This document shows positions 1-48,594 of a stretch of DNA of 64,000 nucleotides, piece by piece; position 1 is the stretch's first letter; every line of letters begins with the position of its first letter. The translations under genes and the position numbers were made by a program. Source of the stretch: a virus; the IMG/VR virus record IMGVR_UViG_3300044680_000048, positions 32,001 through 96,000 of that record; one strand, 5' to 3'. Under the pieces are notes generated by a model. It saw only the letters and a list, made by a program, of their open reading frames with translations, did no database searches and had not been told where the DNA came from.

Positions 1-44
1 CTACCTGATTGGCTACTTCAAAGGAGATTTGTGTTATTTTATTC

Positions 45-2372: not shown

Positions 2373-2381
2373 ATTCTAAAC

Positions 2382-4786: not shown

Positions 4787-4802
4787 AAAATCCTCCTAGT
4801 AC

Positions 4803-5429: not shown

Positions 5430-5460
5430 TATAATTCCTATTTAGACTAGTAGAATTCTA

Positions 5461-6330: not shown

Positions 6331-6352
6331 AGTAAGAGTTTACCTTTTCCCG

Positions 6353-6997: not shown

Positions 6998-7042
6998 AGT
7001 AAAGGAGTTCCGCCATTATTGACAATAGTTTAATTGTAGTCC

Positions 7043-10000: not shown

Positions 10001-10690
10001 ATCTTGAGTTAGTCTCTTTATATCAAAAGCTTTCCGGGAAGCTTGAAGCCGGGAAGGATCTAGTCCTTGAGCTAACTCTTCTCTTAAGGGGTTAAAAGAA
10101 AAAGCATCGGCAAGCCCTAACTTTTTATTCGCCTTAGTATACTTAAGATCTTCTGCATCGTTAAGGTCTCTCAATTTCTGAGCAGCAAGTTGAGAACGTC
10201 TAGCTTGAACCGCCTGATTTTCTGAATCCTTACGGAGAGTTTTTTGGATCTCCCCTAAAGGTTGATCTGTAAGACCAGTAGTAGAAGAAAAAGATCGAAT
10301 TCTTTGTAGCTGACTAGCGGCTATTGCCCTAGCTTGTGCAATTAAATTATCACCAATAACAGTATAGGCGGTTTCTACAGCCCTATTTAACACCTGTGGT
10401 GCAGCAGCCACAGGAGCATTACCAACTATTGGAGCATTACCTCCTGCGGGAACTCCATTATTATTTACATTTATTCGTAAACCATTCTGTGCAATATTAA
10501 GAAGTTGTCTTAACTCATCTCCTACAAAATTTAATCTAACATCAATGGTAATTCCGGTTCTAGCAGCAGCTAGAAGTTCTGCCAGTTGAGCATTAGGAGC
10601 CAAATTGGCAGTAACAGTAAGCCCTCTAAGTTGATCTTGGAGATCTGAAAGGTTACTGATCCTGGCTGTTATATCTATCTCTTTAGCCAC
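7043..10690 (-). CDS. tail tape measure protein (1215 aa)
   Basis: Longest ORF of the tail operon, downstream of the G/GT chaperone pair. It is Ala/Gln/Leu/Lys/Glu-rich and coiled-coil-like throughout. It has a Gly-rich hydrophobic segment (FFSGLLGGPANAIGGAIGATTLGGATGVLAG). The GTG start overlaps the upstream TAG (TAGTG). Confidence 0.8.
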   Translation of the reverse strand: MAKEIDITARISNLSDLQDQLRGLTVTANLAPNAQLAELLAAARTGITIDVRLNFVGDELRQLLNIAQNGLRINVNNNGVPAGGNAPIVGNAPVAAAPQVLNRAVETAYTVIGDNLIAQARAIAASQLQRIRSFSSTTGLTDQPLGEIQKTLRKDSENQAVQARRSQLAAQKLRDLNDAEDLKYTKANKKLGLADAFSFNPLREELAQGLDPSRLQASRKAFDIKRLTQDKEAAQAVFFSGLLGGPANAIGGAIGATTLGGATGVLAGTSIVSATTAAFEKLFDTLKSASEVALDFEKSVAGTVGLLQATTEITRDGKPVSPAEQLGEQERIATRFQKTARVALAPLGVGGKEEFLLTQAYQEGRRGKATEGELKDVLPVLTAVLKPFNLGEAKEARELRDIGSGQRLSSTTVGPTIQALAPDLQNALSFGTPEDIQKAIEPLRGFYQAIKDGNQPLTEIYKAQFQLNTAQADAGESLNKALLPGLKAFNEFISNPSITKNLQNLAAAIGNLSSTATVVVIKLIEQTGQNNTNTQNLISETIRNNPVLKGLGVQNSVALNTFFPGIGDKVNADIEEDNQIGRLQTNAAQLAKLKAAGGNVGNLKNTSPGLQSGLNPLAKFNNILADYGLKPEDLDKFDSTSIASSGKNPFSQIAAATAGLAGLTRLSKEQQLSKRTPLLNLIEEGQTSLQSEHQKLYDTSTIGGAREANSAAQQDINARLKTQTEISSNLAERLKTLTKGTEEYNAVSNASAESELKRKQIIAEGTRTVRESIDLEIKRNNIRAQGFDTFTFSGRNAADAAGIKSAQANIELLKKRVANGTGNNEEDQAQLRSEQTKLAGLKRDQEKLPLDVYGSTLNLIEGFTKLKDTMADLDDKTKSLDISYRRTGRAQEDFKDERELRHLNRQENILTAADRVSELGGSVQGLPGELQGLVKVIDITKNSFEALDKSIADNITRQREINEAQKALNGVLGIDQGGSRLAKGESAEDQFDFSDRLNAAQSRLNAATLLPGLDGLENPFRKQFERDRAEKQYQSALNRNSDLRGSEEDADTESEFNISQKKNRREKANIPTERLNAQFSFLRQAQEFTSQLGDSNPALKAFLRKTIVDPGVNNIKDQLKDSGFDFSLPSEEEAEDTRKKQANKVVNRFNKTGEKRANESASQYKDRQKKDFDEAIKGVKEDLATNSKTLSQLSKTDLVDAISTGASISLNSQFA

Positions 10691-11136
10691 TAAATTGCTC
10701 CAAGGAAGTCATTCCAAGCATTATTCTGCCAGTCTTTAGTTGTATCCCCAGCACTTGAAGGGGTAAATCTTGCCACATCACTAATAGCAGATTTAGACCG
10801 CCGGAAATCCGTAGAGTCTAAATCTTGAGCAACTTCATCTAAAGTAGGTTTAGACTTCTGCCGGACTCCTCCAATAAAAGGATAAATAGTGGAGAAGTGG
10901 GTTACTTCTGGAAGGTATATAGAAACTTCAGCTCCATGAGAGCTGGAAGATAAACTTCGTTTAATATAATTCCGCAGTTCTTGAGTTCTTACCGGAACTT
11001 TAGACTGAAAGGCTTGGAGGGCAAGTTCTCCATACTCATTCCCTAACTCAATGGAGAGTTCAGCAAGAGTAGTAGGATTTAAATTCTTGGTTAAAGAGGA
11101 ATCAAAATTAATATTAATTTTTGCTAGGTCTGTCAT
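10690..11136 (-). CDS. virion protein between chaperone and tape measure (148 aa)
   Basis: ATG start at 11136. The KVPVRTQELRNYI segment weakly recalls HK97 gp10-type tail components (from memory, not verified). The position is unusual. Confidence 0.5.
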   Translation of the reverse strand: MTDLAKININFDSSLTKNLNPTTLAELSIELGNEYGELALQAFQSKVPVRTQELRNYIKRSLSSSSHGAEVSIYLPEVTHFSTIYPFIGGVRQKSKPTLDEVAQDLDSTDFRRSKSAISDVARFTPSSAGDTTKDWQNNAWNDFLGAI

Positions 11137-11154
11137 ACCTATATTGTATACAAA

Positions 11155-11939
11155 TTACTCTTCGCCACCAAAGGCTTGGAAGATCTTACCGGCAGCTGCA
11201 AGAACGCCATGTTCAGACCCACTTGTGGTTTCCCCTTCTTCCCCTTTGTGGGCTAAGAGGGTAATAATTTCCATTAGGCGCCAACGGGGAAAGGAATCAA
11301 AAGAGTCCCAAGTGTTGAAATAAAATCCAGCAATATTTAACTCAAGGAATAGCTTATTATCTGCATCAATTTCTGCAATAGGGACAGGAGCCTGTATTTG
11401 CTTGAGAAGTTCAGAAAATCCGCTAATAGAATCACGGACTTTTTTAAACTCTTCTTCTAAAGCTAGTTTAGACTCCTTGGAGGTAAAAAAAGTACACCCA
11501 ATTCACACTCATTATTAATGAGAAGTTTGGCTAGAGCAAGTTTAGTTTTATCCCAGACACCCGCATCAAACCCTTCTTGAGTGACCTTAGCAGCTTGTCC
11601 AAACTGGTGGCCAAGGACGGAAAGGCAATCAAAGGCTAATTTCATAACATAAGATTCATTGTCTTCCGGCAAGACTCCATCTACGGCAGCTTGTTTCTCT
11701 TCCAAGATAGGGGTTATCCTTTCTTCATATTCAGCCATAGACTCATCTTCCAACTTAATCAAACGGGAAGAATATTCTTTATCTATTTCCCGAAGAGCTT
11801 TCTTCTGTTCTTCAAGCTTAGCATCGTGCTTAACTCCAACTTCTTTAATAGCCGCCCGAAGTTCCCTAGCCTTAGCTACAGTGATCATATCTGACTTGAT
11901 AACGAGTCTTTGGGCACCTAGAACAAATTCTGTATCCAT
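11155..11939 (-). CDS. tail assembly chaperone, GT-like -1 frameshift product
   Basis: I translated the -1 frame by hand from the slippery site. It stays open for about 110 codons (TSKESKLALEEEFKKVRDS...GKIFQAFGGEE) and ends at a TAA at 11155-11157. It fills the otherwise ORF-free gap 11137-11462. Confidence 0.65.
11463..11939 (-). CDS. tail assembly chaperone, G-like short product (158 aa)
   Basis: Acidic helical ORF upstream of the tape measure. It ends seven codons after a T_TTT_TTA slippery heptamer. Confidence 0.7.
   Translation of the reverse strand: MDTEFVLGAQRLVIKSDMITVAKARELRAAIKEVGVKHDAKLEEQKKALREIDKEYSSRLIKLEDESMAEYEERITPILEEKQAAVDGVLPEDNESYVMKLAFDCLSVLGHQFGQAAKVTQEGFDAGVWDKTKLALAKLLINNECELGVLFLPPRSLN
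11484..11490 (-). promoter_or_regulatory. -1 programmed ribosomal frameshift slippery heptamer T_TTT_TTA
   Basis: The minus strand reads GTA CTT TTT TTA CCT. In the zero frame this gives X_XXY_YYZ = T_TTT_TTA. On the plus strand it is the A7 run at 11485-11491. Confidence 0.65.
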
Positions 11940-11977
11940 TTATCCATCCTTATTGGGTAATCTAGTAGGTAGTTTAA

Positions 11978-12511
11978 CTAAAACGGACTAATGCCGGTTT
12001 GATTCATTAGAGTTATCAATGCTGAGTTAGCTTCTTTATGGAAGAGTTGGATAGTAGCGTCCCGCTGGTTCCAGAAAAAGTTTAGGGGAATATCTGTTTG
12101 TACTTTTTTACTTCTAACAATTTGCCAATTTACAATAACTTCACATTGGGGAATGAAAATACTGCTTCCGGAAGTATTAACTCCATCCCATAACAAGAGG
12201 GAATATTGTTGCCCAGAAGGAGGAGAATCTTGTGCTGCCGTAACCCAGTTAGACATTGCCAGGCAAATTGCCTGCGGATCATCGCTAATAAAGGTAAGGG
12301 AAACCTTGATTCCGGGAAGACCTTCTTGTACTGTTCCATTAACACAAGCTTTCCACCCAGACTTAGGAAGGTTATATCCTACCGTATAATTTCCCGTCCC
12401 AATAATATTCACTTGAGTTAGGGGAACTCCGGAAGCTCCATATTGACCCACATACATTGAAGTAAAGGGACCGAAAACAAATTTAAATACTGCCAAGAAA
12501 AAAATCCCCAC
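11978..12511 (-). CDS. tail structural protein, possible tube-type (177 aa)
   Basis: It lies between the 307-aa ORF and the chaperone gene. GTG start at 12511, with an alternative ATG at 12457. The role is inferred from position only. Confidence 0.5.
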   Translation of the reverse strand: MGIFFLAVFKFVFGPFTSMYVGQYGASGVPLTQVNIIGTGNYTVGYNLPKSGWKACVNGTVQEGLPGIKVSLTFISDDPQAICLAMSNWVTAAQDSPPSGQQYSLLLWDGVNTSGSSIFIPQCEVIVNWQIVRSKKVQTDIPLNFFWNQRDATIQLFHKEANSALITLMNQTGISPF

Positions 12512-12525
12512 TTATTACAGTAGGG

Positions 12526-12534
12526 ATTCTAACT
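12526..12534 (-). promoter_or_regulatory. AGTTAGAAT promoter-like box
   Basis: The minus strand reads AAAGTTAGAATCCC, 15 nt upstream of the GTG at 12511. It belongs to the same family as the boxes at 13607, 16651, 31395 and 48509. Confidence 0.4.
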
Positions 12535-12554
12535 TTTAGATTTTACTTAATTAG

Positions 12555-13478
12555 TTACTTTCTGCTGTAAGTGAATACAGTAGCTGAGTTATTAAACAAG
12601 TAATCTGATGGAACAGTGACAAAATGGTAGGGAGTAGGAGTTTGAGCTTTCTTGCTCCAGGCTTGTGTAATACTATCCAAATTCTTAAGGAAAAGGGAAG
12701 TAAACAGAACTTGTTCACTAACACCCGTCGCGGGGTCCGGAGGAGGAGTTACGATAAAGGGTCTGTTACCTTGGACAACAATTTGAGCAGTATTGGCCGC
12801 CAAATCCGCCTGTTGATAGACATGGCCATTTGCTGTAACTTGTGTATAGTCTCCGAAAGAGGCTCTACAGAAAGTCAAAACATCATTTGCCAGAACTTGA
12901 TACTGAACTTCAGCACTTCTACTAGAAATAGCATCAAAGTCAGCAGCATTGTTAGGACTGAATGTTACCTTGCCGGAAGGGTTAAATATGACATTAACCG
13001 TTTCCGTTGTAGGAGACTGTGTAACAAATTGGAAACCTTGCGGGTTTCTATCACCTAATTCTGGGTAAGAAGAGTTGGAACTAGAAGCTTGGAGGGTAGC
13101 AATTGGAATTTGAGTATATTGGGCCATTGGTTTAGCCTTAACTGTTACTACCATATCATTAATGGCATCTACAGCTACACACTCAGCTAGTTGGAATCCA
13201 CCTGAATTGGTCTTCAACCAAACACAGACAAAGGCCGCATTAGAAAAATTACTTGGCCAAGAGGCGTTAGATAAGTAAACATTTATAACGTTCTGTGAGC
13301 CAGTCAGAACGATGTTTCCGCTGGGACTAGTAGATACAGTGCTTGAATAACCATCAGTTGTAGTATCTTGTCCCGTGAGGGTTACTGCAACTTGGTAAGT
13401 ATCCGTCCGTAAAAGAGGAGCCCTAAAACTATTATAGAAAATGTTATCAGCTACGTAGCCACTGGCAACAAATGCCAT
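12555..13478 (-). CDS. major tail protein candidate (307 aa)
   Basis: It sits two genes upstream of the chaperone pair and is preceded by a 143-bp intergenic region with a promoter-like box. No sequence motif was recognised. Confidence 0.5.
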   Translation of the reverse strand: MAFVASGYVADNIFYNSFRAPLLRTDTYQVAVTLTGQDTTTDGYSSTVSTSPSGNIVLTGSQNVINVYLSNASWPSNFSNAAFVCVWLKTNSGGFQLAECVAVDAINDMVVTVKAKPMAQYTQIPIATLQASSSNSSYPELGDRNPQGFQFVTQSPTTETVNVIFNPSGKVTFSPNNAADFDAISSRSAEVQYQVLANDVLTFCRASFGDYTQVTANGHVYQQADLAANTAQIVVQGNRPFIVTPPPDPATGVSEQVLFTSLFLKNLDSITQAWSKKAQTPTPYHFVTVPSDYLFNNSATVFTYSRK

Positions 13479-13606
13479 TCCTTCTAAAGAGGGTATTGCT
13501 GATTGATTAGGTACACCAATTGCAACTCCGGCTGGACCTGCGCGAAAGGAAATTACTGAAATGGCCCTATACCCCGTATACGAGAAAGATTTGTTTTACA
13601 AATAGA

Positions 13607-13615
13607 ATTGTAACT
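13607..13615 (-). promoter_or_regulatory. AGTTACAAT promoter-like box
   Basis: The minus strand reads GTAGTTACAATTC in the intergenic region upstream of the 307-aa ORF. The 12-mer TAGTTACAATTC is identical to the one at 31393-31404. Confidence 0.4.
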
Positions 13616-13621
13616 ACAGGT

Positions 13622-14233
13622 TTAATATTTGAGTCTCTTTACTACTAATCTCTGGTAGAAGCAGTAAAAACGAACATAAAATTCTTTAGAGTCTTTCCCG
13701 ACAAGTCCATCCCAGTATGCTTTTACGTCTGATTGTGGATCTATAGTGAGGTCTGTAACAGGGATTTCCGGAATCCCGTTAACATTAGTTCCCCAGTTAT
13801 AGTCTATTAAGGATCTTATTCTTAGTTCCGCCAAGGCACATCTATCAGCATCAGCTTGAGAGACAGTTCCCCCAATCTTTAAGTAGATGAAGACTTCCGC
13901 AAACTCTGCTCCAGTAGCATTACTCTTAGGTCCTATATCTACAGGAGAGTCACATTGGTCCATTATTCTATTAGTTTGGACATCTATAGTCCTGCTTCCC
14001 GATTGACCAACTCCAAAGGAATCAGTTACCATTCCCGCCCATTGAGTATTTGTATAGCCGGAAGAGGGAGTTCCGGAAAGCCATATATCCTTTATACAGG
14101 TATAGAGATATGTAGGAACAGCTGAAGCAGCATTAAACTGTAGAGGATAAGCAGCTACATAACTAGAAGCGAAAAGTGTAGTAACGTCATTCCGCAAGAC
14201 ATCAGCAAGGCATTTACCTATTCCGGTAGACAT
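13622..14233 (-). CDS. head-tail joining region hypothetical protein (203 aa)
   Basis: Co-oriented ORF that abuts the upstream ORF with a 1-nt overlap. Confidence 0.5.
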   Translation of the reverse strand: MSTGIGKCLADVLRNDVTTLFASSYVAAYPLQFNAASAVPTYLYTCIKDIWLSGTPSSGYTNTQWAGMVTDSFGVGQSGSRTIDVQTNRIMDQCDSPVDIGPKSNATGAEFAEVFIYLKIGGTVSQADADRCALAELRIRSLIDYNWGTNVNGIPEIPVTDLTIDPQSDVKAYWDGLVGKDSKEFYVRFYCFYQRLVVKRLKY

Positions 14234-14853
14234 TATGTTCTATCCGCCTGTTCTAGGTTGAGGATACAAATATTATCCTTATAATCTACTAGGGTAATTT
14301 GCCATACATCATTGGACCCAACTCCAGGAGTTTGGTCTATTAATTTCATCCCTTCAACTATTCCGGCACGTTTATAAATTACTGCTCTTTTAGTAGGAGT
14401 ATTGAGGGAAGTAGTTTGAGCAGGAAAAGTATCCCTTCCGGCAATGAGATTAATGGAATACTCAAATAGGACATTAGAGTATATAGTATTCTGTCCATCA
14501 GTAATACTTCCGGTTTTAGTAGTCTTAAATCCTAGAAATTGATGCATTTCTGGGACTTGTAGCATGGTCATTACCGGAAAGTCATTAGTGGTGGTTTCTT
14601 GGATTATATAACCAGGAGAGAGGGAAGTTCTATCCCCACAGACTATGAATAACTCCATATCTCTATACTTATCTTGGGCAAATTTATCATTACAAGCTTC
14701 TACATGAAGCTTTCTTCCCGTCAAGTAGGGTTGAGGAGTTCCGTCCACCCTAGTGTATATGGGGGAAGAGATATTCCAATAGTAATCCCCGCCTGCCAAT
14801 TTGGCAGTCATTATCTTATAGGTATACTCTATTCGGCTTAGGCGGTTAGACAT
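14233..14853 (-). CDS. head-tail joining region hypothetical protein (206 aa)
   Basis: Co-oriented, tightly packed ORF in the tail operon. Confidence 0.5.
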   Translation of the reverse strand: MSNRLSRIEYTYKIMTAKLAGGDYYWNISSPIYTRVDGTPQPYLTGRKLHVEACNDKFAQDKYRDMELFIVCGDRTSLSPGYIIQETTTNDFPVMTMLQVPEMHQFLGFKTTKTGSITDGQNTIYSNVLFEYSINLIAGRDTFPAQTTSLNTPTKRAVIYKRAGIVEGMKLIDQTPGVGSNDVWQITLVDYKDNICILNLEQADRT

Positions 14854-14854
14854 A

Positions 14855-15862
14855 TTAGTTCAAAATAACGTATTCGGACAATTCCCCTCTAATCTGGTCA
14901 ATCAGGGGAGTATCCTTAAATGTAACTTTCCAAGAGCCATCTTGGAGGGAAGATATTCCGGCATTGTTCTCTAAGATTGCTGACATTAATCTGTAGAGAG
15001 CAGCCTGAACTGTTACTGGGATTTTATAGTTTCCGCCAACATAAGAAATCTTAATTTCATTACCAAAGCTAGAGGGCTCATACGAGTAATAAGCATTCTG
15101 GGAAGGTATGTATTGTAATTCTCCGGTTCTTCTAATATAGTTCCACATAACACTGGCGGAACCCCCTAAGAAAATACCAAAGAGGGAAAAGGTATAAGGG
15201 CGTTTAGCCCATACTCCATCAAACCAGAGGCCGGGAATAGATTCCCTAAGGAAGAATGACCGCTGCCAATAGCCCGCCTCTTCATGGACCCTACATGTCA
15301 TTACTATGCGGTTATTGAGCATTGATATAAGTCTTGAGGAAGCAATTTCAATCAAACTTATAATCTGAGTATTAGTTAGAGGGGTACCATTAACATCAGT
15401 TAAGACTAATCCATTAATAGGACCTTCATTTTGGGCTTCCGCTAACGTACATAAAAGAGGAGTTTCGGAAATCTTATAAAGGATTCCGGTTGAATCATTA
15501 ATGAGGGAAATCTCATAGTCACATTCACTAAAGAAGGTGAGGACATTCTCTGAGATGTTTACTCTCCAGAGGGCTAAACCCAACTGAGAGCTGAAGACGG
15601 GGAATCCATTAGGATCAATTGTACTGTTGCTAGTAAATTGCGGTTGCCCCGTAAATAAAAATCCATACTGCTGTAACTGTATAGTCAGCTGGGTTTGAGC
15701 GGCAAAAGCCACAGCGTTTTCGTTCATAGAAGTCACAATTCCAGTTACAGGTAAATTAAATAGAACTTGATTAAACGCAGCATCAATACTTTGAAATTGG
15801 ATTGAAAAACCACCAGAAGAGGCCGCACTTTGACAAATGCTAAGTGAAATTAATCTTTCCAA
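14855..15862 (-). CDS. first gene of the tail operon, hypothetical structural protein (335 aa)
   Basis: TTG start with an in-frame TAG just upstream. A palindromic AGTATACT -10-like box lies at 15885-15892. Confidence 0.5.
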   Translation of the reverse strand: MERLISLSICQSAASSGGFSIQFQSIDAAFNQVLFNLPVTGIVTSMNENAVAFAAQTQLTIQLQQYGFLFTGQPQFTSNSTIDPNGFPVFSSQLGLALWRVNISENVLTFFSECDYEISLINDSTGILYKISETPLLCTLAEAQNEGPINGLVLTDVNGTPLTNTQIISLIEIASSRLISMLNNRIVMTCRVHEEAGYWQRSFFLRESIPGLWFDGVWAKRPYTFSLFGIFLGGSASVMWNYIRRTGELQYIPSQNAYYSYEPSSFGNEIKISYVGGNYKIPVTVQAALYRLMSAILENNAGISSLQDGSWKVTFKDTPLIDQIRGELSEYVILN

Positions 15863-16104
15863 CCTTGGTTTTCCTAAACATTGTAGTATACTATTGATTG
15901 TAGTCTAACAGGAGCTTAACAGAGATTGGTACAAGAAAGAGAAAATTTAATAGGAGTATGCTAAAACTGGTTCTTATACTGCCTCCTTAGAAGACGTTAA
16001 GAAACATATTCAAAAGCATGGTGGGAAAGTAGAAATTTACTGCTAATGGGTAGTACTCTTCCCATTAAGCCCCGTTTTAAGAGTTAATGGGTACACATTA
16101 ACAG

Positions 16105-16126
16105 AAAAACCTCCCTCAGGGGAGGC
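16105..16126 (-). terminator. intrinsic terminator on the minus strand
   Basis: The minus strand reads CCTCCC-CTGA-GGGAGG followed by TTTTT. No annotated minus-strand gene lies upstream of it. Confidence 0.5.
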
Positions 16127-16643
16127 TACTACTAATGTTATTTTAGTATCTGCGGCAGTCTTACGACTACCCACCACCAACTTTCGTCGATGGGGCCTAA
16201 GAGCAAGTCTTAGGGTGGATTTCCTTCTACGTTATTCCGGCTAGTTACTTAAAACTCTCCATCGGTATACCCCAAGGGACCAAGAATAACGGCTTATGAA
16301 GGAAGTTAAATGAAGAAGGGGTTCGAACCTTTAGTTTCCCTTAAAGAAACTCCTTAATCATTTAATTACTCTTCCGGCAAGATTTTACTTGCATCTTCCT
16401 CTGTACAATCGAGGGCTTTAATTAAGCGACGGAAGTTAGATTGTCTTCCACGGTGGTCACGATCATTACCTACCCTGAAGACTTTGTAGGTTATCAACCT
16501 ACAACTTAAAGTTGATTTCCGAAATAAGAACGTCATATCAACTTAATAGCTAGATATTTTAGTACTACTATTTAGCTATCTTGGGGGGAAGAAGTACGCA
16601 GAATTCTGTTCCCTCTTCCTTGTATATTTATTTTACCATACCT

Positions 16644-16659
16644 TTCCGGAAGTTACAAT
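16644..16659 (+). promoter_or_regulatory. TTCCGGAAGTTACAAT promoter-like box
   Basis: It lies 32 nt upstream of the ATG at 16691. It is nearly identical to TTCCGGAAGTTAGAAT at 48502-48517. Confidence 0.45.
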
Positions 16660-16690
16660 CTCAAAAGTGTTAAATTTTTAGGAGAAGAAG

Positions 16691-17071
16691 ATGAAACGAC
16701 CGGAAGGTTACTTTGGAAAACTACTAACAGTAGATTTTCTAGGTATAAGATCTGAACTCCTAGTAGATAAAGAGTTAATGGCTGAGGTTTCCCGTCAAGT
16801 TATTAGTCTTGCGGCAATGACCATAATACAAGGTCCAGACATTTTCTATTATGAGCACCCAACAGACCCATTAGAGAGTGGACTTACCGGATGTACTATC
16901 CTCTCAGAAAGTCACTTCACATTTCACTCGTTCCAGAGAAGCGGGTTCCTAACCCTAGATCTGTATAGCTGTTCAGATTTTATTCCGGAAACAATTATAA
17001 GTTACCTAAAGGGTGTATTTAACCCAACTTCAATGGAAACTAATGTTCACCTTAGAGGGAAGGGATACTAG
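16691..17071 (+). CDS. speD: S-adenosylmethionine decarboxylase proenzyme, small pyruvoyl class (126 aa)
   Basis: The LSESHFTFHSF segment matches the ESH self-cleavage site. The downstream LDLYSC segment and the ~125-aa size fit bacterial class 1b AdoMetDC. A GGAG box precedes the ATG. Its TAG shares a CTAG with the convergent gene. Confidence 0.65.
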   Translation: MKRPEGYFGKLLTVDFLGIRSELLVDKELMAEVSRQVISLAAMTIIQGPDIFYYEHPTDPLESGLTGCTILSESHFTFHSFQRSGFLTLDLYSCSDFIPETIISYLKGVFNPTSMETNVHLRGKGY

Positions 17072-17493
17072 GGTTTAATAACTCCTGCTTCTAGTTCGTC
17101 TCTTGTATATTCTATTTGTTCATCAATAAGTCCTGGGTCATAATAAGGTTCCGGAAAGTTAATTAATTTAACTGTTTGAGAATATGTATTGTAGATGCCT
17201 ACAGCTATTCCCGTAGGAATATGTAGAGTACCACCAGTAGCTAAAACGTACTCTTTGGGTCCTGGTATACCTGGTTTGAAGAGAGTTACCTTTGCTGTTC
17301 CTTCTACACAGACATAATTAGAAGCTCTAATCTTATGTAGGTGAAACCCCTTGAAACAGTAGGGCTTAACGGTAGTCAAATAGGCTACTGTATGCTCCCC
17401 GTCTTTCTTTAATTCCATTAACTCACCATTAGTGAGATAGCCGGAAGAGTAGGTAATAACCTGCTTAGCCCAGCCAAGTTTTCCAAATTCCAT
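17068..17493 (-). CDS. cupin-fold sugar-nucleotide epimerase/isomerase-like protein (141 aa)
   Basis: It has the size and a FKGFHLHK...VEGTAKV...IPTGIAVG pattern typical of RmlC or FdtA/QdtA-type cupins. This is a motif-level call only. Confidence 0.4.
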   Translation of the reverse strand: MEFGKLGWAKQVITYSSGYLTNGELMELKKDGEHTVAYLTTVKPYCFKGFHLHKIRASNYVCVEGTAKVTLFKPGIPGPKEYVLATGGTLHIPTGIAVGIYNTYSQTVKLINFPEPYYDPGLIDEQIEYTRDELEAGVIKP

Positions 17494-17495
17494 AA

Positions 17496-17762
17496 TTATC
17501 TAACCTCTTGAAGCATACGTGCTAGACGGGGATGGCAATAATAACCTTCCTTTTCTAGTAAAACTTTAACAGCAAGAAGGGCGTCATGTCCATTCATTAG
17601 ACGCTTATACTTCTCTAAAGGCATATATCTTACTTTACCCTTAATCTTGCCGGAAGTATTTCTTTTCTTGCTATTAAAGTTATTCCGGCACCTAATAGTG
17701 CAGTAGATATGAGCCGGATGTTTCATCTCAAACTGCCTTCCGCAATTGTCACAGATATCCAT
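17496..17762 (-). CDS. zinc-ribbon protein (88 aa)
   Basis: It has CDNC...CTIRC cysteine pairs and is basic. Confidence 0.5.
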   Translation of the reverse strand: MDICDNCGRQFEMKHPAHIYCTIRCRNNFNSKKRNTSGKIKGKVRYMPLEKYKRLMNGHDALLAVKVLLEKEGYYCHPRLARMLQEVR

Positions 17763-17774
17763 GAAAAATTCCTC

Positions 17775-18077
17775 CTAATTGTTACCTAACTTTTTTAACT
17801 TGAAGAACTTTATAATCCGTTTAAGTGTTTTTGGTATATCATAACCTTCGGTTATATCTTCCATATATGAAACAGTCTCTCTATAACCTATATGTAAGTC
17901 TATGTAAGCCTCATTATCAATTAAAGATATATCTGCCCGAAGGTTCTTCCGGACCCAGGAGAAATAAATACAGTTACTATCTACTATCTTAAAATAGTCC
18001 TTATTTAATTTGGGTTCCATTGACTCTAGCCAAACTTCTAGAGCCTTGGATCGATTTTCACATAAATTGGTTCTCAT
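17775..18077 (-). CDS. hypothetical protein (100 aa)
   Basis: Co-oriented ORF. Its ATG overlaps the stop of the small upstream ORF (ATGA). Confidence 0.5.
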   Translation of the reverse strand: MRTNLCENRSKALEVWLESMEPKLNKDYFKIVDSNCIYFSWVRKNLRADISLIDNEAYIDLHIGYRETVSYMEDITEGYDIPKTLKRIIKFFKLKKLGNN

Positions 18078-18193
18078 ACATTTAATACCATGCTTAGTTC
18101 AAGAAGAAGAAGTCCACGTTCTAGGGGGTCTTTCTCTTCCAGAAACCTTTTAAGAATTTGAGAAGCTAACCTCACCACATCACCGCTTTCCAT
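18074..18193 (-). CDS. small hypothetical protein (39 aa, below the track cutoff)
   Basis: Hand translation gives MESGDVVRLASQILKRFLEEKDPLERGLLLLELSMVLNV. An AGGAG box lies 8 nt upstream. An ATGA overlap couples it to the next gene. Confidence 0.4.
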   Translation of the reverse strand: MESGDVVRLASQILKRFLEEKDPLERGLLLLELSMVLNV

Positions 18194-18256
18194 AGATGAA
18201 CTCCTGTTGGTTTACAGAAATCAATATACAACAACCGGAATCTATTGTCAATACAG

Positions 18257-18280
18257 AAAAACCTCCCATTTCTGGTAGGT
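18257..18280 (-). terminator. imperfect intrinsic terminator on the minus strand
   Basis: A hairpin ACCTACC-AGAAAT-GGGAGGT with one mismatch is followed by TTTTT, just downstream of ORF 18316-18834. Confidence 0.35.
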
Positions 18281-18315
18281 CTTTAAGTTCATAATCGAGA
18301 CAGTAATATTTTAAC

Positions 18316-18834
18316 TTACTTGACTTTTGGTTCTTTGACAGAAGTGTTAAGTTTTTCTTCCTTTTTCAAATCAAGAGCAGTCTTACGGGTCTTAAGCTTA
18401 GCTTTTTCGGTCAATTCGACTTCCATCTCTTTGAGGATATCTCTTGGGGAAGTTTTATCCAACATAGAGGTATAGAGATTCATATACTTCTGATTCTTAA
18501 CTGAAATGGGGTCTGAATTGAAGACACCGGAACGGTAATGGCAAGAACGCATTACTCTCTTGGCAAACTCCTTATCATTAGTATCAATAATCCCGTCTTC
18601 ACTTTCCGCTACCCAAGAAGCCACAAGATGCTCTTCTGTATGAAGATGTTCTGGAATGATAGGTTGGCCGGTAGCCGTAGCCCCTAGCTTATTCTTCTTA
18701 CTAAGGATTTCTTGATATTCTTCACAGAGAGTGGGATCAAAGAATTGAGCTTCTCCGGAAATCTGCCCATCAAGGTCAATTTTTGCGCCGTCTTTAGCCG
18801 GTCTAACAGCTAGTCGATAAAATGAAAGCTTCAT
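18316..18834 (-). CDS. hypothetical protein (172 aa)
   Basis: Long ORF with a Lys/Glu-rich C-terminus. No motif recognised. Confidence 0.55.
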   Translation of the reverse strand: MKLSFYRLAVRPAKDGAKIDLDGQISGEAQFFDPTLCEEYQEILSKKNKLGATATGQPIIPEHLHTEEHLVASWVAESEDGIIDTNDKEFAKRVMRSCHYRSGVFNSDPISVKNQKYMNLYTSMLDKTSPRDILKEMEVELTEKAKLKTRKTALDLKKEEKLNTSVKEPKVK

Positions 18835-18858
18835 TTAATATTCAAATTCCTATATAGG

Positions 18859-18867
18859 TGGTATACT
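18859..18867 (+). promoter_or_regulatory. extended -10 promoter TGGTATACT
   Basis: A TGn-TATACT box lies 33 nt upstream of the ATG at 18900, at a divergent junction. Confidence 0.45.
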
Positions 18868-18899
18868 ATGTATGTTAGAAGCTAGTGGGTCAATAAGAA

Positions 18900-19220
18900 A
18901 TGGATGATAAATTTAAGCTTAAAAGAACTGGAACACCCTTATCCGAAATTTGGAGCATTTACTCTGGACCCACAGGTAGAAGCGACTACCTATTAAAAGA
19001 ATTAGAGGGTTTAGGATTTGATTCTGTGGAGAGGCTTTATAGTAGTATTATAGGGTCTCCCGAAGCTTTTCAAGTGTTTTTTAAAGTTCATGGGGAAAAC
19101 CTAAGTACCCTTATAGGGATACTTGAAGCGTATCTTCCCGTTTCTTTTATTAAAGAGGTTAAGGAGTATATAGCTCCTGAATATGGTATGGGTCTAGTCT
19201 TGCCGGAAGACTTTGGATAG
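18900..19220 (+). CDS. hypothetical protein (106 aa)
   Basis: First ORF of a rightward block of small genes. Confidence 0.5.
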   Translation: MDDKFKLKRTGTPLSEIWSIYSGPTGRSDYLLKELEGLGFDSVERLYSSIIGSPEAFQVFFKVHGENLSTLIGILEAYLPVSFIKEVKEYIAPEYGMGLVLPEDFG

Positions 19221-19555
19221 TGGGACAGCGGGGAGAATATGAAGACCTTATGGGAAAGACTTTTACTGATCTATATGTAGAGGGTCCGGCAGACTCTAGA
19301 TGGGAATCCGGAAAGGTTAAATACTACTGGACAGTAAGATGTTCCTGTGGTACTATTTTTGAGGCTAGGGGGTCAGCACTTAAGCACGGTTCCCCCCAAT
19401 CTTGTTTTCCCTGTGGAAGAAAGAGAGCCGGAAGAACTAATCACATCAGAAAATCTAAAATTATGCAGTGTATTAGAGAAACTGTTAAGGACATGTATGA
19501 TGCTGGAGTTATGTCAGAAGAAGAATTTACAAACTTTAAGGATATATTTGTATGA
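19220..19555 (+). CDS. zinc-ribbon protein (111 aa)
   Basis: It has CSC...CFPC cysteine pairs. The track start is a GTG; an alternative ATG lies at 19250. Confidence 0.5.
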   Translation: MGQRGEYEDLMGKTFTDLYVEGPADSRWESGKVKYYWTVRCSCGTIFEARGSALKHGSPQSCFPCGRKRAGRTNHIRKSKIMQCIRETVKDMYDAGVMSEEEFTNFKDIFV

Positions 19556-19767
19556 AGATTGAAAGATACGAGAACTATTATGGAGAGCAAGAGCTAACTT
19601 TCTGGTTTGGTAATAATTATTTCATGTTTGACTCCAAGGGTAACTTTGAATTCTTAGCTGCAGGTTATGGTAGTGGTTATGAAGTTGTTCCAGATATAAC
19701 TAAACGGGACACACTTAGCAAAGAAGAACGGGAAATCCTTATTAAATTCCTTCAGGAGATTGAATGA
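19552..19767 (+). CDS. hypothetical protein (71 aa)
   Basis: It overlaps both neighbouring genes by 4 nt, as expected for a translationally coupled operon. Confidence 0.5.
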   Translation: MKIERYENYYGEQELTFWFGNNYFMFDSKGNFEFLAAGYGSGYEVVPDITKRDTLSKEEREILIKFLQEIE

Positions 19768-20246
19768 AAGGACAGAAGCAAGTATTCTCTAGTACATATC
19801 AAAATTGGGAGACTCCTAAACCTTTATTTAATAGGTTACATGAAAGATTTAATTTTACTATAGATCTTGCCGCAAGCCCTGATAACCATCTATTACCTAG
19901 ATTCTATACAGAAGAAGATAATTCCCTAATTCAATCTTGGGTAGATGAACGGGGGTTCACTAACCCTCCTTATAATATAGCTCCAGAATTCATTGAAAAG
20001 TCCTATATGGAAGTAGCTTATGGGTGTATGGAGTTGAATCTTTTATTGGTTCCGGCAAGAACTAGTAACAAAGAGTGGGAAGAATTTGTATTCCCTCATG
20101 CGGAGGAGTTGATTTTTATCAATGGACGTGTTAAGTTTGGTAATAGTCCAACCGGTGCTCCTTTTCCTTCTGTTTGTATACTCTTCCGGGAAGACAATTG
20201 CGGGAAAGGTCCTAAAGTCAGTTGGATATCAGTAAGAGGTGAATAA
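19764..20246 (+). CDS. DNA N6-adenine methyltransferase, phage Dam family (160 aa)
   Basis: It has WETPKPLF, FTIDLAA and the catalytic NPPY motif (FTNPPYN), in the order typical of the small phage Dam family. Confidence 0.7.
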   Translation: MKGQKQVFSSTYQNWETPKPLFNRLHERFNFTIDLAASPDNHLLPRFYTEEDNSLIQSWVDERGFTNPPYNIAPEFIEKSYMEVAYGCMELNLLLVPARTSNKEWEEFVFPHAEELIFINGRVKFGNSPTGAPFPSVCILFREDNCGKGPKVSWISVRGE

Positions 20247-20578: not shown

Positions 20579-20702
20579 TTGAAATTAAAATTCCTTTTTG
20601 ATATAGGGCAAGATGTCTACCCTATTAGATTATTTGATTACGAAATCATAACCTGCCCCAATTAAACATGATGAGAGTCCTAAAAGAGAAATAACCTAAA
20701 GG

Positions 20703-20728
20703 AAAGCCTCCCAATTGGGAGGCTTTTT
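20703..20728. terminator. bidirectional intrinsic terminator
   Basis: AAAGCCTCCC-AATT-GGGAGGCTTTTT lies between the convergent 86-aa ORF and the capsid gene. T-rich tracts follow on both strands. Confidence 0.65.
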
Positions 20729-21964: not shown

Positions 21965-24139
21965 TTACTGTTGGGCCCAATTGGCCATGATGAAACTGTC
22001 TAGTGTGTTTGCCGGTTGAGTAGCTTTATTTACTTCAACAGCTTTGTTCTGGATCTCAAGAACTTTTTCTACAAGTTCTTCCGCACTGGTGGAAGCAGCG
22101 GCTTCTACAGCCTTACTAATTGATTCGACCATTTTGGCAAGCTCCCCAATCAGTTTTGATTGATCAGCCTGGATTGATTTCTGTGCTTCTACAGCAGCGA
22201 CAAGCTTGTTGACTTTTTCAACAGCTTCCTTGTTAGAAGCAACAAGAGACTTTATTGTTAGGTTGGTTTCCGGAGAGAGTGAAGCTTCTACAGATTTACC
22301 AAGCTTTACGGAAGTCGGATCTTTATCTTCCGATTTTCCTAGTTTGACGGAAGTAGGGTCACTATCTTCGTTAGTAATTTTCTTAGTGTCGTTATCACCG
22401 TCGCGGTCTTCACCGCCAACACCCTCATCACCATCAGGTTCTTTGTGGGCCTTAACACACTCATCATCTTCTTCAGACTTCATGCACTCATCTTCTTCAG
22501 CAGAAGCTTTAGTGGAAACATCTTCGTACTTAGAAGGATCAGCATCACCGGAACCCGGATTTAGCTTAACCGCATCTTTTTCTTCTTTTGCCACTGATTT
22601 ACTATCCTGTATAGTGTTAACGTTAATTATTGTAGCGGAGGATTTATTTTGTGTTAAATTATCTCTCAAAGAAGAGGCATGAACATTTAGAAGTGTCCCA
22701 AAAGCCTCATAAGAATTAACTGCCCCTTCTGGCAATTCCATATTATGTGTCCAGATGGTAGGGCGTTCAGCAGATTTAGCAGCTTCAAGACGATGATGAC
22801 CATCAATCATATAGATATCTCCATTGCGGGAGATAGTCATTCCACCATCAAAATTTCCTTCTTTAACAAATTGTGCAACTTTTTCTGCGTCTACGGCAGA
22901 CTGAGTTGGTTTAACTTGTTCCGGACGAACCTGAACAAGGGGAAGACCCTTATATAATCCTGGATTACTAATCAATGCCTTAACAACAGAAAACTCAAAT
23001 TCACTTTTAAGAAAGTCTGGATACAGGGTTTTATTGATGGATTCTGTTAAAGATTTCTGTTCAGGAGGTCCGGAAGAATCTATTTCTCTTTTCCAAGCAG
23101 CCTTAATCTTAGATTTTATATGAGAAAGTTCTTCAGAGGAGTACTCTGAAGAATTCCTTTCTTGATGAATGTAATTCCAAGCTGCTCTGATGTGCTCTTC
23201 TGTATCTATAGGATAACGAGGTTTTTTATCTTCCTGGTAACCAGGATCTGCGTATTCTACATCCCCATAAGGTTTTTTCGCTTTCATCATTGCTGCTTCA
23301 GGAGCATTATCACACTCATGAGCATTATCTTCCGGTTCATCTCTATAGGCTTCTGGATCAGTAACTCCACCACCATTAGGGGGAGAAATAGTAGCTTTAT
23401 CCTCAAGGGCTTTTTGTTGAAGAGATTTGATTGCGGTTTTCATTCGAGCGGGAACATTTACAACCGATCTTTCTAGGTAGCGGGCAACTTTATTAATAGT
23501 TACTGAAACAGGTTTGCCGGATTCATCCACCTGTCCCGGTTCATGTGGGCAGGCATAAGAATAAATAGACATGTTACAGGAACTACAAACTTTATGGTTG
23601 GGGTCTACTAAAATACCTACAGAAATAGAACGAACAGTACCGTTTTTTATTCCTTTTATAAGAGGAGCATGGTAATCCTCAAGAGGAATGCCCCATGTTT
23701 CTCTAGGACCTTCTTTAGTCATCCTAGAAGAAAGGCAGATACCTAATGGAGGGAGATTATTAAGATTATGTGAATGATCCATGAGGACGGGAGTAGCTGG
23801 TCCACCGTCTACTATGTCCTGTTCAGCATCTTTGGAGAACTTATCTCCTTGTACATCAACCTCATTTCCAAGGCCTAGAACGTTAATATTACGTAAAACC
23901 ATCCACTGGTGGGCTTCTTGGGGCACAACAGAAAATTCATTAATGAGTTTCATTTCTTCCATAGAAGGAGATAAACTTTGATTCTCCTCTACCATTGTCT
24001 TAGCAGCTTTAAGAGTTCCGGTACTTCCCATACTCTTATACATAACTAAGCCGGTCTCTTCTTCAGGTTCCGGCAAAGACTTCTTGATAGAAACTGCTCT
24101 TACTTCTTCCGGAAGGACTTTTTTAAATTCTTCTACCAC
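21965..24139 (-). CDS. prohead protease - ParB/Srx-like domain - scaffold fusion protein (724 aa)
   Basis: The N-terminal part has HK97-type prohead protease-like segments (PVLMDHSHNLNNLPPLG, SISVGIL). A YADPGY...YPIDTEEHIRAAWNYI motif follows. The ParB N-terminal-type motif is VKPTQSAVD...MIDGHHRLEAA, with DGHHR at 22790-22804. An acidic tract and an Ala/Glu/Lys coiled-coil C-terminus complete it. GTG start. Confidence 0.6.
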   Translation of the reverse strand: MVEEFKKVLPEEVRAVSIKKSLPEPEEETGLVMYKSMGSTGTLKAAKTMVEENQSLSPSMEEMKLINEFSVVPQEAHQWMVLRNINVLGLGNEVDVQGDKFSKDAEQDIVDGGPATPVLMDHSHNLNNLPPLGICLSSRMTKEGPRETWGIPLEDYHAPLIKGIKNGTVRSISVGILVDPNHKVCSSCNMSIYSYACPHEPGQVDESGKPVSVTINKVARYLERSVVNVPARMKTAIKSLQQKALEDKATISPPNGGGVTDPEAYRDEPEDNAHECDNAPEAAMMKAKKPYGDVEYADPGYQEDKKPRYPIDTEEHIRAAWNYIHQERNSSEYSSEELSHIKSKIKAAWKREIDSSGPPEQKSLTESINKTLYPDFLKSEFEFSVVKALISNPGLYKGLPLVQVRPEQVKPTQSAVDAEKVAQFVKEGNFDGGMTISRNGDIYMIDGHHRLEAAKSAERPTIWTHNMELPEGAVNSYEAFGTLLNVHASSLRDNLTQNKSSATIINVNTIQDSKSVAKEEKDAVKLNPGSGDADPSKYEDVSTKASAEEDECMKSEEDDECVKAHKEPDGDEGVGGEDRDGDNDTKKITNEDSDPTSVKLGKSEDKDPTSVKLGKSVEASLSPETNLTIKSLVASNKEAVEKVNKLVAAVEAQKSIQADQSKLIGELAKMVESISKAVEAAASTSAEELVEKVLEIQNKAVEVNKATQPANTLDSFIMANWAQQ
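22289..22360 (-). repeat. tandem duplication DPTSVKLGKSEDK / DPTSVKLGKSVE inside the scaffold region
   Basis: Read in the translation at aa 594-617. The underlying unit is an imperfect 39-nt DNA repeat. Confidence 0.7.
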
Positions 24140-24188
24140 TAAATTTGCCTATTATAAAGATAACAGTCTAAATTTTAGCTGTTACTTC

Positions 24189-24197
24189 TGGTATAAT
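24189..24197 (+). promoter_or_regulatory. extended -10 promoter TGGTATAAT for the tRNA
   Basis: The box ends 6 nt before the first tRNA nucleotide. Confidence 0.5.
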
Positions 24198-24203
24198 AAA
24201 ATT

Positions 24204-24282
24204 AGTAGGGTAGGGGAGTCTGGTCGTCCCCGCAAGGCTCATAACCTTGAGATCGTGAGTTCAAATCTCACCCTTGCAACCA
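24204..24282 (+). tRNA. tRNA with CAU anticodon (Met, or Ile2 if lysidine-modified), CCA encoded
   Basis: I folded the cloverleaf by hand. The D stem is GGGG/CCCC with a GG-containing loop. The anticodon arm is CAAGG-CTCATAA-CCTTG. The variable loop is AGATC. The T arm is GTGAG-TTCAAAT-CTCAC. The acceptor stem AGTAGGG/CCTTGCA has an A1-A72 mismatch and two G-U pairs, followed by ACCA. Confidence 0.75.
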
Positions 24283-24284
24283 AT

Positions 24285-48517: not shown

Positions 48518-48594
48518 AAGATTACAAAGTTAGACAATTTATTTGCTTTTGAGCCAAGACTGCATTGGCTCTTAGCTTTTCATGGGGTATTTTA

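Follow-up and report, generated by a model that had tools for sequence, protein, structure and literature searches.

The longest gap without an open reading frame (ORF) in the 111,990-bp complete genome of an uncultured phage lies at positions 15863-16690 of the 64,000-nucleotide stretch of viral DNA analysed here (the window); the runner-up is 457 bp. This region is non-coding, and its predicted folding is exceptional and strand-biased. Our tentative reading, with a probability of about 0.4, is that it may hold an orphan leftward non-coding RNA unit, carried with speD as accessory cargo, and then a tail-operon promoter region, unstructured and 240 bp long. The features, in window coordinates, are:

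15863-16043, minus strand: tail-operon upstream region, unstructured and A+T-rich (folding z-scores; G+C 0.34)
16044-16102, no strand assigned: cluster of TAATGGG / CCCATTA half-sites (inverted repeats I13 and I14 and the 8-bp hairpin 16061-16091)
16098-16127, minus strand: intrinsic terminator, AGCCUCCC-CUGA-GGGAGGUU then UUUUUCUGUU
16130-16214, minus strand: four short predicted hairpins, 16214-16196, 16193-16174, 16171-16154 and 16148-16130 (fold helix list)
16221-16304, minus strand: domain C, a long branched hairpin (predicted fold)
16306-16365, minus strand: domain B, Y-shaped and tRNA-like (predicted fold and sub-threshold tRNA scores)
16371-16435, minus strand: domain A, a three-way junction (predicted fold)
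16443-16619, minus strand: five consecutive predicted hairpins, 16482-16443, 16504-16484 (perfect 9 bp), 16544-16509, 16580-16545 and 16619-16587
16630-16664, no strand assigned: overlapping back-to-back promoter-like sites (consensus matches only)
16691-17071, plus strand: speD, S-adenosylmethionine decarboxylase (Pfam AdoMet_dc 1.3e-18, PHROG 3125)

The initial annotation described a region free of ORFs of at least 60 aa in a genome whose coding density elsewhere exceeds 90%. No such ORF occurs in 15863-16690, and a crude gene call gives a density of 0.90. Each of the six frames contains 14-25 stops of mixed types, which excludes a recoded gene. A missed protein gene was likewise ruled out: stops of all three types are present, no Shine-Dalgarno-led small ORF was found in 15863-16690, and the 56-aa ORF previously named as the best candidate (16366-16536, minus strand) lacks a Shine-Dalgarno site, as claimed, and had no match but itself in a set of 1.84 billion representative proteins. 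Scans of the region with Pfam and PHROGs in six frames gave nothing below E = 0.3. The genes that precede the tail gene in four relatives supplied 15 proteins as tblastn queries, and their sole match was the cupin gene itself. With both types of search empty for the region, decayed cargo or a pseudogene (the RNA ligase or small genes found at this place in the relatives) was rejected. The G+C content is 0.40-0.43 vs a genome mean of 0.39. A similarity search of the region against the rest of the genome was empty, which rules out a DGR template or internal repeat. The word CCGGAA is as dense inside the region as in the remaining genome, so this is not a fresh foreign insert.

To the right, speD has a Shine-Dalgarno sequence, AGGAG, at 16680-16684. 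The gene points away from the RNA region and towards the cupin gene, which it overlaps tail to tail with no terminator in between; a search with the SpeD protein returned only itself. The cupin gene (stop 17068) belongs to a three-gene leftward operon together with a 100 aa gene and an 88 aa HNH-like gene. To the left, the start of the 335-aa tail gene at 15862 is backed by relatives, whose alignments begin at residue 1-2. The four relatives, L001-L004, share the order 172aa-88aa-cupin-slot-tail335-p206, with tail protein identities of 41-62%. Their slot contains an RNA ligase plus an 83-aa gene (L001), three small genes (L002) or nothing (L003, L004), and transcription of their tail gene is continuous with that of the cupin gene before it. 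Judged by gene order, the putative RNA unit is an insertion relative to kin, in a variable slot. In three other samples the region recurs with 0-1 differences, a persistence that counts in favour of the RNA reading. Comparison of these copies is uninformative on variation; the sole variant, at 16259, falls in a predicted unpaired junction of domain C. No tyrosine integrase was found in the genome, and the phage is probably virulent.

Folding provides the main real signal of the region, and the earlier description of it as highly structured is borne out by the z-scores. A 546-nt minus-strand segment has a predicted free energy of -175 kcal/mol (z = -7.22), vs z = -4.87 for the plus strand. Over ~16100-16620 the minus-strand values range from -7.2 to -7.3 and those of the plus strand are weaker (-3.2 to -4.9). 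Two 400-nt segments of the region gave z = -7.3 and -7.2; the genome null (n = 124) has a mean of -0.55, sd 1.4 and minimum -5.2. Thus the computed minus-strand fold beats its shuffles and every other sampled genome segment. In a ranking regressed on G+C, segments of the region came 4th and 6th of 2232. The strand difference in z is -4.1, outside the null range (null sd 1.25), and in the 3' 213 nt the minus strand forms 7 G-U pairs vs 1 for the plus strand. With DNA folding parameters both strands fold about equally and the strand bias is gone. At 16450-16600 the plus strand folds slightly better, so that part is less securely assigned to a leftward RNA. In 15863-16043, 150-nt segments gave z of +0.4 to +2.3 on both strands. 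High predicted stability alone is no proof of function.

The overall predicted fold consists mostly of serial local hairpins and not of a compact architecture. Three perfect hairpins noted earlier (16061-16091, 16196-16214 and 16484-16504) can be read directly in the sequence, and the latter two also occur in the minimum-free-energy fold. Two of the four hairpins in 16130-16214 contain G-U pairs, and the strand asymmetry peaks there. Domain B is predicted to be closed by a long helix and to contain two hairpins, one anticodon-arm-like (GUUUC-UUUAAGG-GAAAC) and one T-loop-like with GGUUCGAACC. In domain A the genome-wide word TTGCCGGAA occurs once (16380-16372, minus strand), and the second GGAAGTTA box, at 16431, lies on the opposite strand.

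A minus-strand terminator with no gene feeding it had been reported at 16105-16126. The terminator is present: an independent scan places its stem at 16127-16108 on the minus strand (8 pairs, 5 of them G-C), followed by TTTTTCTGTT, and ranks it first in window positions 1-20000. It has the makeup of a Rho-independent terminator, with an 8-bp stem, a 4-nt loop and, on the minus strand, UUUUUCUGUU after the hairpin; a T tract is missing from the plus strand. Two other strong terminators of this phage have the same GCCTCC..GGAGGC stem type, one at 20701-20728, just downstream of the MCP gene, the other at 32997-32976. Strictly speaking, the terminator at 16127-16108 is not an orphan. Because the terminator scan found no other minus-strand terminator from the cupin stop to 16127, it may also end an operon driven from a strong promoter-like site at 18251.

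One or more structured non-coding RNAs had been among the explanations first offered, and the region belongs to no known RNA family. With cmscan and Rfam 15, a search that took in riboswitches, ribozymes, introns, GOLLD, ROOL, HEARO, pRNA and T-box, the sole match in the window at gathering thresholds was tRNA-Met at 24204-24279. At E <= 10 over 15700-16900 there were three chance-level matches only. The tRNA model (RF00005) scored 15.4 bits (E = 6.4) at 16311-16375 on the minus strand vs a 29-bit gathering score, and ARAGORN reported nothing there at default or -ps and called a tRNA only at -ps80, beside obvious false positives. A tRNA was rejected on the sub-gathering cmscan score and the empty ARAGORN default run. 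A tmRNA, standard or permuted, was also rejected: ARAGORN found none at default, no Rfam tmRNA-clan model matched at E <= 10, and a sub-threshold plus-strand call appeared at -ps80 only. An attP site or host tRNA fragment was ruled out as well. The single 20-nt exact match in 596 Gb of genomes (~1 expected by chance) lies in a high-G+C coding region without a tRNA, and the genome gave no tyrosine integrase.

Conservation in related phages was not found. Homologues of the region were sought by blastn against 50,697 phage records, by sensitive blastn and nhmmer against the four relatives, with a custom covariance model (R1) run on the relatives and on the entire genome, in scans of IMG/VR that had the tail protein, SpeD or a tail-protein alignment as query, and by exact and degenerate pattern scans of viral and metagenome contigs; none of these returned one.

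All of the short words listed earlier are present: GGAAGTTA at 16301, 16431 and 16648, TACTACTA at 16127 and 16563, ATTTTAGTA at 16140 and 16556, and AGTATACT at 15885. By our estimate the two-copy words and the AGTATACT palindrome are near chance. AGTATACT occurs 6 times in the genome and GGAAGTTA 14 times. The CCGGAA word family is seen 310 times genome-wide vs 30 expected, and the GGAAGTTA copy at 16648 is part of TTCCGGAAGT, a member of this family; the GGAAGTTA boxes thus belong partly to a genome-wide CCGGAA(G) excess. As a region-specific iteron GGAAGTTA is weakened, its 14 copies having no wider common context and overlapping the CCGGAA(G) family. A GTAGGTTGA..AACCTAC hairpin shared by 16502 and -13001, in a structured stretch of the early region, was put down to chance, since a shared 9-mer is expected between two 800-nt regions.

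Promoter-like matches number 4 in the region vs 3.2 expected in shuffles. On the leftward strand, TTGTAA-17-TAAAAT with a TG extension (16658-16630) agrees with the consensus at 9/12 positions, and TTGAGA-18-TATGGT also occurs. On the rightward strand, TTTACC-16-TACAAT (16632-16659) lies inside TTCCGGAAGTTACAAT, 32 nt ahead of the speD start codon. A similar sequence, CCGGAAGTTAGAAT, at 48506 is 59 nt upstream of another plus-strand gene. Boxes of the GGAAGTTAnAAT type, at 16648 and 48506, are possible promoters, although three intergenic instances are a small basis for judging this. At 16577-16569 (minus strand), AGCTAAATA looks like a candidate late-promoter word. Within the first 20 kb, the closest match to a promoter is sigma-70-like (11/12) and lies at 18251-18223 on the minus strand. 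Between the terminator and the tail gene is a promoter-like TAGACT-16-TACAAT (15907-15880, minus strand). Here two tandem ACTACAAT boxes, covered by direct repeat D11, contain the -10-like TACAAT at 15885-15880 and 15902-15897, and the AGTATACT palindrome (15885-15892) overlaps one of them. Just past the terminator, the TAATGGG / CCCATTA half-sites form overlapping palindromes or mutually exclusive hairpins, and are candidate operator-like sites or alternative RNA pairings.

Under our preferred reading, which keeps the structured RNA and the unannotated leftward transcript of the initial annotation, a stand-alone RNA gene of 0.46-0.52 kb (~16100-16620) would be transcribed leftward, from the extended -10 promoter-like site at 16658-16630 or from near 16577, and the RNA would be released at the strong intrinsic terminator (16127-16098). 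Its fold would string together about a dozen hairpins and three branched domains, of which one bears a loose resemblance to a tRNA. The segment 15863-16100 would be an ordinary unstructured promoter/operator region of the tail operon, and the RNA unit and the divergent speD would together make up 'moron'-type cargo in the slot that separates the cupin gene from the first gene of the tail module. We infer that the RNA exists, that it starts at one of these sites and that it works as RNA.

The same terminator could instead belong to a leader or attenuator of the tail operon. Transcription would start at ~16620 or upstream and usually stop at 16127, yielding a short by-product RNA, and would enter the tail genes only when RNA polymerase is made resistant to termination by a phage factor or by the folded leader itself. 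The terminator has the orientation of the tail operon and lies 245 nt upstream of it, a placement with which the regulatory switch between modules proposed in the initial annotation may also agree. In addition, the relatives' tail gene is transcriptionally continuous with the cupin gene, the TAATGGG/CCCATTA repeats that follow the terminator can pair in alternative ways, and premature termination in 5'UTRs yielding non-coding RNAs has been documented in virulent phages (PMC10914365). We nevertheless consider a leader unlikely. The Q-family antiterminators PF06530 and PF03589 had no match in the complete genome, although both were detected in control genomes; an unrelated antiterminator may still be encoded. 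The TACAAT boxes between the terminator and the tail gene mean that the operon need not rely on read-through, 500 nt far exceeds known examples, and the relatives do without such a leader. An improbable variant on the upstream side is a long structured 3'UTR, in which the terminator would end the leftward operon of the 100 aa, 88 aa HNH-like and cupin genes, transcribed from 18251-18223 and running antisense through speD. Such a 3'UTR could stabilise the 3' end or give rise to a 3'UTR-derived RNA, and the antisense overlap could lower speD. The 11/12 promoter match, the stretch free of minus-strand terminators between the cupin stop and 16127, and the tail-to-tail overlap of speD and cupin genes all fit, and phage 3'UTR-derived non-coding RNAs are known. 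Yet ~960 nt would be needed whereas most phage 3'UTRs are <100 nt (PMC10914365 for both points), head-on transcription across speD would be required, and the promoter-like site at 16658-16630 offers an independent start.

Readings with no RNA at all were also weighed. The region might be leftover DNA of cargo turnover in a recombination hot spot, still carrying a terminator and promoters, and its hairpins might be due to chance or be palindromes that bind proteins at the DNA level. The sequence is an orphan, conserved in no relative found, the slot is clearly variable, an HNH-like gene is nearby, and DNA parameters remove the strand difference. We judge this improbable too, at the same level as the 3'UTR, since no coding remnant is recognisable in any frame and both the z-score, the most extreme in the genome, and the G-U strand bias are unexpected of decaying DNA. 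A replication origin, packaging site or genome end draws on the largest non-coding stretch of the genome, three GGAAGTTA boxes and many hairpins; but the terminase genes are far away, the boxes are partly explained by the CCGGAA(G) word, and the early region has a non-coding stretch, at ~-13600 to -12700 (window coordinates), that is rich in hairpins and looks more like an origin. The origin proposed in the initial annotation fared poorly: the region has no tandem repeats or iterons (two-copy short repeats only), a G+C above the genome mean and a flat cumulative GC skew. A DNA-level element is the most improbable of these.

Several known systems resemble the proposed leftward RNA in part. Lambda has a late leader, pR'-6S RNA-tR', that acts with Q antitermination, and HK022 has the put RNA. 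The present arrangement is like these leader models in the order of a promoter-like site, a predicted structured transcript and an intrinsic terminator, upstream of and co-oriented with a late operon. It differs in lacking a Q-family gene, in a leader 2.5 times longer, in promoter-like boxes before the operon and in having no put-like homology detected. GOLLD and ROOL are large phage-associated structured RNAs, both with Rfam families and often found near tRNA genes. The predicted RNA shares with them a highly structured, non-coding length of several hundred nt, with a tRNA-like element here inside the RNA itself; in contrast to them, it has no Rfam match even at E <= 10, consists mostly of serial hairpins and has no homologue family. 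The T4 tRNA cluster encodes stable RNAs, species 1 and 2 (rnaC/rnaD). Like these and phage tRNAs, domain B has a T-loop-like GGUUCGAACC and a 5-bp/7-nt anticodon-arm-like hairpin (U33, purine 37), in an accessory location of a large phage. Unlike them it fails tRNA models, has no D arm and a short or mismatched T stem, and is embedded in a longer RNA. In Pseudomonas phages, ONT-cappable-seq identified non-coding RNA candidates with a promoter and/or premature terminator near structural genes. Those are also terminator-bounded and intergenic, just upstream of a morphogenesis operon, but they are ~90-210 nt, experimentally detected and genus-conserved (PMC10914365), whereas the RNA here is ~0.5 kb, predicted, and absent from the relatives found. 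Morons are independent promoter-gene-terminator cargo units in phage late regions (PMC3594210). The unit described here is similarly inserted between genes that are neighbours in the relatives. It has a terminator of its own and consensus-level promoter-like sites, and it lies beside an auxiliary metabolic gene. It departs from morons in that its minus-strand cargo is non-coding and the phage, with no tyrosine integrase found, is probably virulent.

A leftward non-coding RNA thus has the folding, the strand bias and a terminator of the phage's own type in its favour, and neither a homologue nor covariation; it stands as an orphan prediction that changes no open question. As a guess, the RNA would be trans-acting or a decoy, serving infection or counter-defence. 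A bolder version, which we regard as very unlikely, would see in it a large, multi-domain phage RNA of a new class, with the tRNA-shaped domain serving as a decoy or substrate mimic, possibly for a host tRNA-targeting defence nuclease. If true, RNA counter-defence cargo would be exchangeable with protein RNA-repair cargo, since the same accessory slot holds an RNA ligase in the closest relative. If the RNA is real, it would be an unusually long, stably folded addition to the still small list of phage non-coding RNAs, and would mean that accessory slots of phage genomes can hold RNA as well as protein cargo.

The 828-bp stretch at 15863-16690, between the leftward tail operon and speD, contains zero ORFs of at least 60 aa, as the initial annotation had stated, and is the longest ORF-free gap in the genome (runner-up, 457 bp). 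All six frames contain 14-25 stops of mixed types, so recoding of stop codons cannot rescue a gene and a recoded gene was ruled out. No ORF of at least 15 aa has a credible Shine-Dalgarno site, which agrees with the lack of one described for the best candidate, a 56-aa ORF whose sole match among 1.84 billion representative proteins is itself. Six-frame translations gave zero matches in Pfam and PHROGs. The region is dissimilar to the rest of the genome, which ruled out an internal duplicate or the template of a diversity-generating retroelement (DGR).

Genes referred to in the text
14855-15862, minus strand: tail335, 335 aa, opens the leftward tail module
16691-17071, plus strand: speD (AdoMet_dc match, 1.3e-18)
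24204-24279, plus strand: tRNA-Met, the only tRNA of the phage, inside a leftward module

The genome is a single 111,990-bp contig (the window is its bases 32001-96000) with a G+C content of 0.39. Its 49-bp terminal overlap indicates that it is circularly closed and complete; IMG/VR classes it under direct terminal repeats, and CheckV completeness is 100%. Clear promoters (TTGACA-N17-TATAAT) and ribosome sites of the GGAG type precede the plus-strand early genes, pointing to an ordinary sigma-70 bacterium as host. A search of the genome for a tyrosine integrase found none. The 3' ends of speD and the cupin gene overlap (17068-17071), with no terminator nearby on either strand, so their transcripts should run antisense through each other (16691-18251) in an excludon-like layout.

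tail335 has no match in Pfam or PHROG, and among 5.8 billion proteins its homologues are only 41-62% identical, with a conserved N-terminus. Four long Logan contigs with tail335 homologues (L001-L004) were used for comparison. Their shared gene order is 172 aa, 88-aa Zn-ribbon/HNH-like, cupin, a slot, tail335 and p206.

Content of the slot between the cupin gene and tail335
L001, the closest relative, 6954-7586: RNA ligase (PF09414) and an 83-aa gene
L002: three small genes
L003 and L004: empty, a gap of 40-60 nt
Present phage: speD on the opposite strand and the 828-bp region

These differences identify speD and the 828 bp as accessory cargo in a variable slot, and the RNA ligase and 83-aa gene of L001 mark the cupin-tail junction as an accessory-gene hot spot. 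No traces of the relatives' cargo were detected in the 828 bp. The alignment with related phages proposed initially found no counterpart in L001-L004, whether with blastn, with nhmmer or with a covariance model built on 16221-16365. The model identified no similar element elsewhere in the genome, and nothing similar to the region was found in 50,697 phage records or in a pattern scan of IMG/VR and JGI contigs. The relatives' intergenic gaps are mostly unstructured, and the only large "gap" of L002 contains small zinc-ribbon ORFs. The identical region occurs in three further samples (Logan SRR35360315, JGI 3300017948, ENA ERZ27249988), which shows that the phage is real and recurrent; with one substitution in 959 bp (at 16259, a predicted unpaired junction), the copies are too alike to inform on covariation.

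The main signal of the region is the strong structure claimed for it initially. The minus-strand RNA of 16095-16640 folds at -175 kcal/mol (z = -7.22, 100 dinucleotide shuffles), compared with z = -4.87 for the plus strand. Against an empirical null of 124 genome-wide windows of 400 nt (mean z -0.55, sd 1.4, minimum -5.2), the minus-strand values of -7.3 and -7.2 were the most extreme, and the region ranked 4 and 6 among 2232 windows in a G+C-regressed ranking. The minus z less the plus z was -4.1, beyond the null range (-2.8 to +3.6, sd 1.25). A 150-nt sliding scan limited the structure to about 16000-16600 and the strand bias to 16050-16300, with 15863-16000 less structured than shuffles. 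The 3' part of the fold has 7 G-U pairs on the minus strand but a single one on the plus strand. The strands were equivalent when DNA energy parameters were used (-4.75 and -4.12), which argues for an RNA-level, minus-strand feature over DNA hairpins. A DNA-level element is the least probable explanation that we considered. The predicted fold is a hairpin chain with three branched domains, then four short hairpins and the terminator.

Predicted domains
16435-16371, minus strand: domain A, three-way junction
16365-16306, minus strand: domain B, Y-shaped, one hairpin T-loop-like (GGUUCGAACC) and another resembling an anticodon arm (5-bp/7-nt)
16304-16221, minus strand: domain C, long branched hairpin

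The Infernal scan suggested initially, run with Rfam 15, had no match that reached a gathering threshold and, when relaxed to E <= 10, returned only three chance-level matches, including a tRNA match over domain B (15.4 bits; gathering score 29). ARAGORN reported nothing until the 80% threshold, where false positives appeared on both strands. These results ruled out a known RNA family. The segment from the T-loop to the 3' end has one 20-nt match in 596 Gb of prokaryotic genomes, about the chance number, in coding DNA of high G+C in a Limisphaerales MAG from a bog, with no tRNA there, which ruled out an attP site. The stretch around tRNA-Met (24101-24600, plus) is also strongly structured (z = -4.5), and this predicted structure may extend past the tRNA itself.

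A replication origin, another initial proposal, was not borne out: the region has no tandem repeats or iterons, its G+C is above average, and the cumulative GC skew passes through it without an inflection. Second in structure across the genome is a plus-strand stretch at -13700 to -12700 (genome about 18300-19300; z = -5.2 over 400 nt), which lies in the early region, has few ORFs and is packed with perfect hairpins; the CCGG word is the basis of several of them (e.g. TATTGCCGGAAGGCAATA and ATGCCGGAAAGACATTCCGGCAT). As a candidate origin or early ncRNA it outranks 15863-16690.

The minus-strand terminator was recovered as the top-ranked match in the first 20 kb. Its stem, GCCTCC...GGAGGC, is the same as in the terminators at 20701-20728, directly downstream of the major capsid gene, and 32997-32976; by the phage's own standards it is real.

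Promoter-like sites, overlapping back to back
within 16630-16664, leftward: TTGTAA-17-TAAAAT with a TG extension
within 16630-16664, rightward, for speD: TTTACC-16-TACAAT

If leftward transcription began near 16623 and ended near 16100, the RNA would be ~520 nt long; an alternative start at the AGCTAAATA word (16577) would yield ~460 nt. The related word AGCTAAAAT has 5 genome copies, of which 4 are intergenic (24180, 25217 and 33604, minus; 42236, plus). Each of the 4 points at a structural or late gene 41-184 nt downstream, and those at 24180 and 33604 share TGTTATCTTT 9-10 nt downstream; AGCTAAAAT is a candidate late-promoter motif. On the 3' side of the terminator lie TAATGGG/CCCATTA palindromes, then an A+T-rich stretch that lacks structure and contains two ACTACAAT boxes in tandem, and then the tail gene.

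Every motif listed in the initial annotation was located at its stated position, while the words present twice and the palindrome AGTATACT occur at roughly chance level. The excess of three GGAAGTTA boxes is borderline; 14 copies occur genome-wide with no common wider context, and that at 16648 is within TTCCGGAAGTTA, part of a genome-wide over-representation of CCGGAA(G) (CCGGAA, 310 observed, 30 expected). The 9-mer TTGCCGGAA has 46 copies (28 plus, 18 minus; ~0.5 expected), for example at 16372-16380 (minus, the sole copy in the region), 17647, 19200, 20050 and 20428. Copies fall both inside and outside coding sequence, on either strand, with unconserved flanks; this is a DNA-level word. 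CCGGAA has the same density in the region (4 per 828 bp) as in the genome, so the region is not a fresh foreign insert. CCGGAAGTTACAAT at 16648 (plus) is 43 nt upstream of the speD start and CCGGAAGTTAGAAT at 48506 is 59 nt upstream of the plus-strand gene at 48565; they may represent a second promoter class. A sigma-like gene (genome 108242-108415) has a weak, below-cut-off Sigma70_r2 match (15.4 bits). Two plus-strand early genes (-20700 and -18530; genome about 11300 and 13470) share a near-identical ~60-nt leader, cataaaatagtta[ct]catttgacct..cttaa....ctgata..ctagtaatgt, apparently a repeated early regulatory cassette.

Taken together, the promoter-like sites, terminator, palindromes and unstructured boxed stretch suggest that the 828 bp combine an independent structured-RNA unit with the tail operon's own promoter region (probability about 0.4). 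The ncRNA proposed initially is tentatively favoured. A doubtful rival is a leader or attenuator of the tail operon. It would be built like lambda pR'-6S-tR' and like the RNAs from premature termination that have been reported ahead of structural genes in Pseudomonas phages (PMC10914365), but the genome lacks a Q-family gene and the promoter-like boxes come after the terminator. A long 3'UTR of the cupin operon is improbable. In this reading the 11/12 match to a promoter at 18251 would drive the operon, with no terminator on the minus strand between it and that of the region; such a transcript would also be an antisense RNA over speD. We consider functionless leftover DNA improbable as well.

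The structured-RNA unit is a plausible prediction. The region would be of a kind already known, a phage terminator-bounded non-coding RNA or moron-type cargo. Its length and predicted stability, both unusual, and its belonging to no family set it apart. In the boldest reading, a long shot, the region would encode a large decoy RNA that has a tRNA-shaped domain and is interchangeable with the RNA ligase carried by the closest relative.
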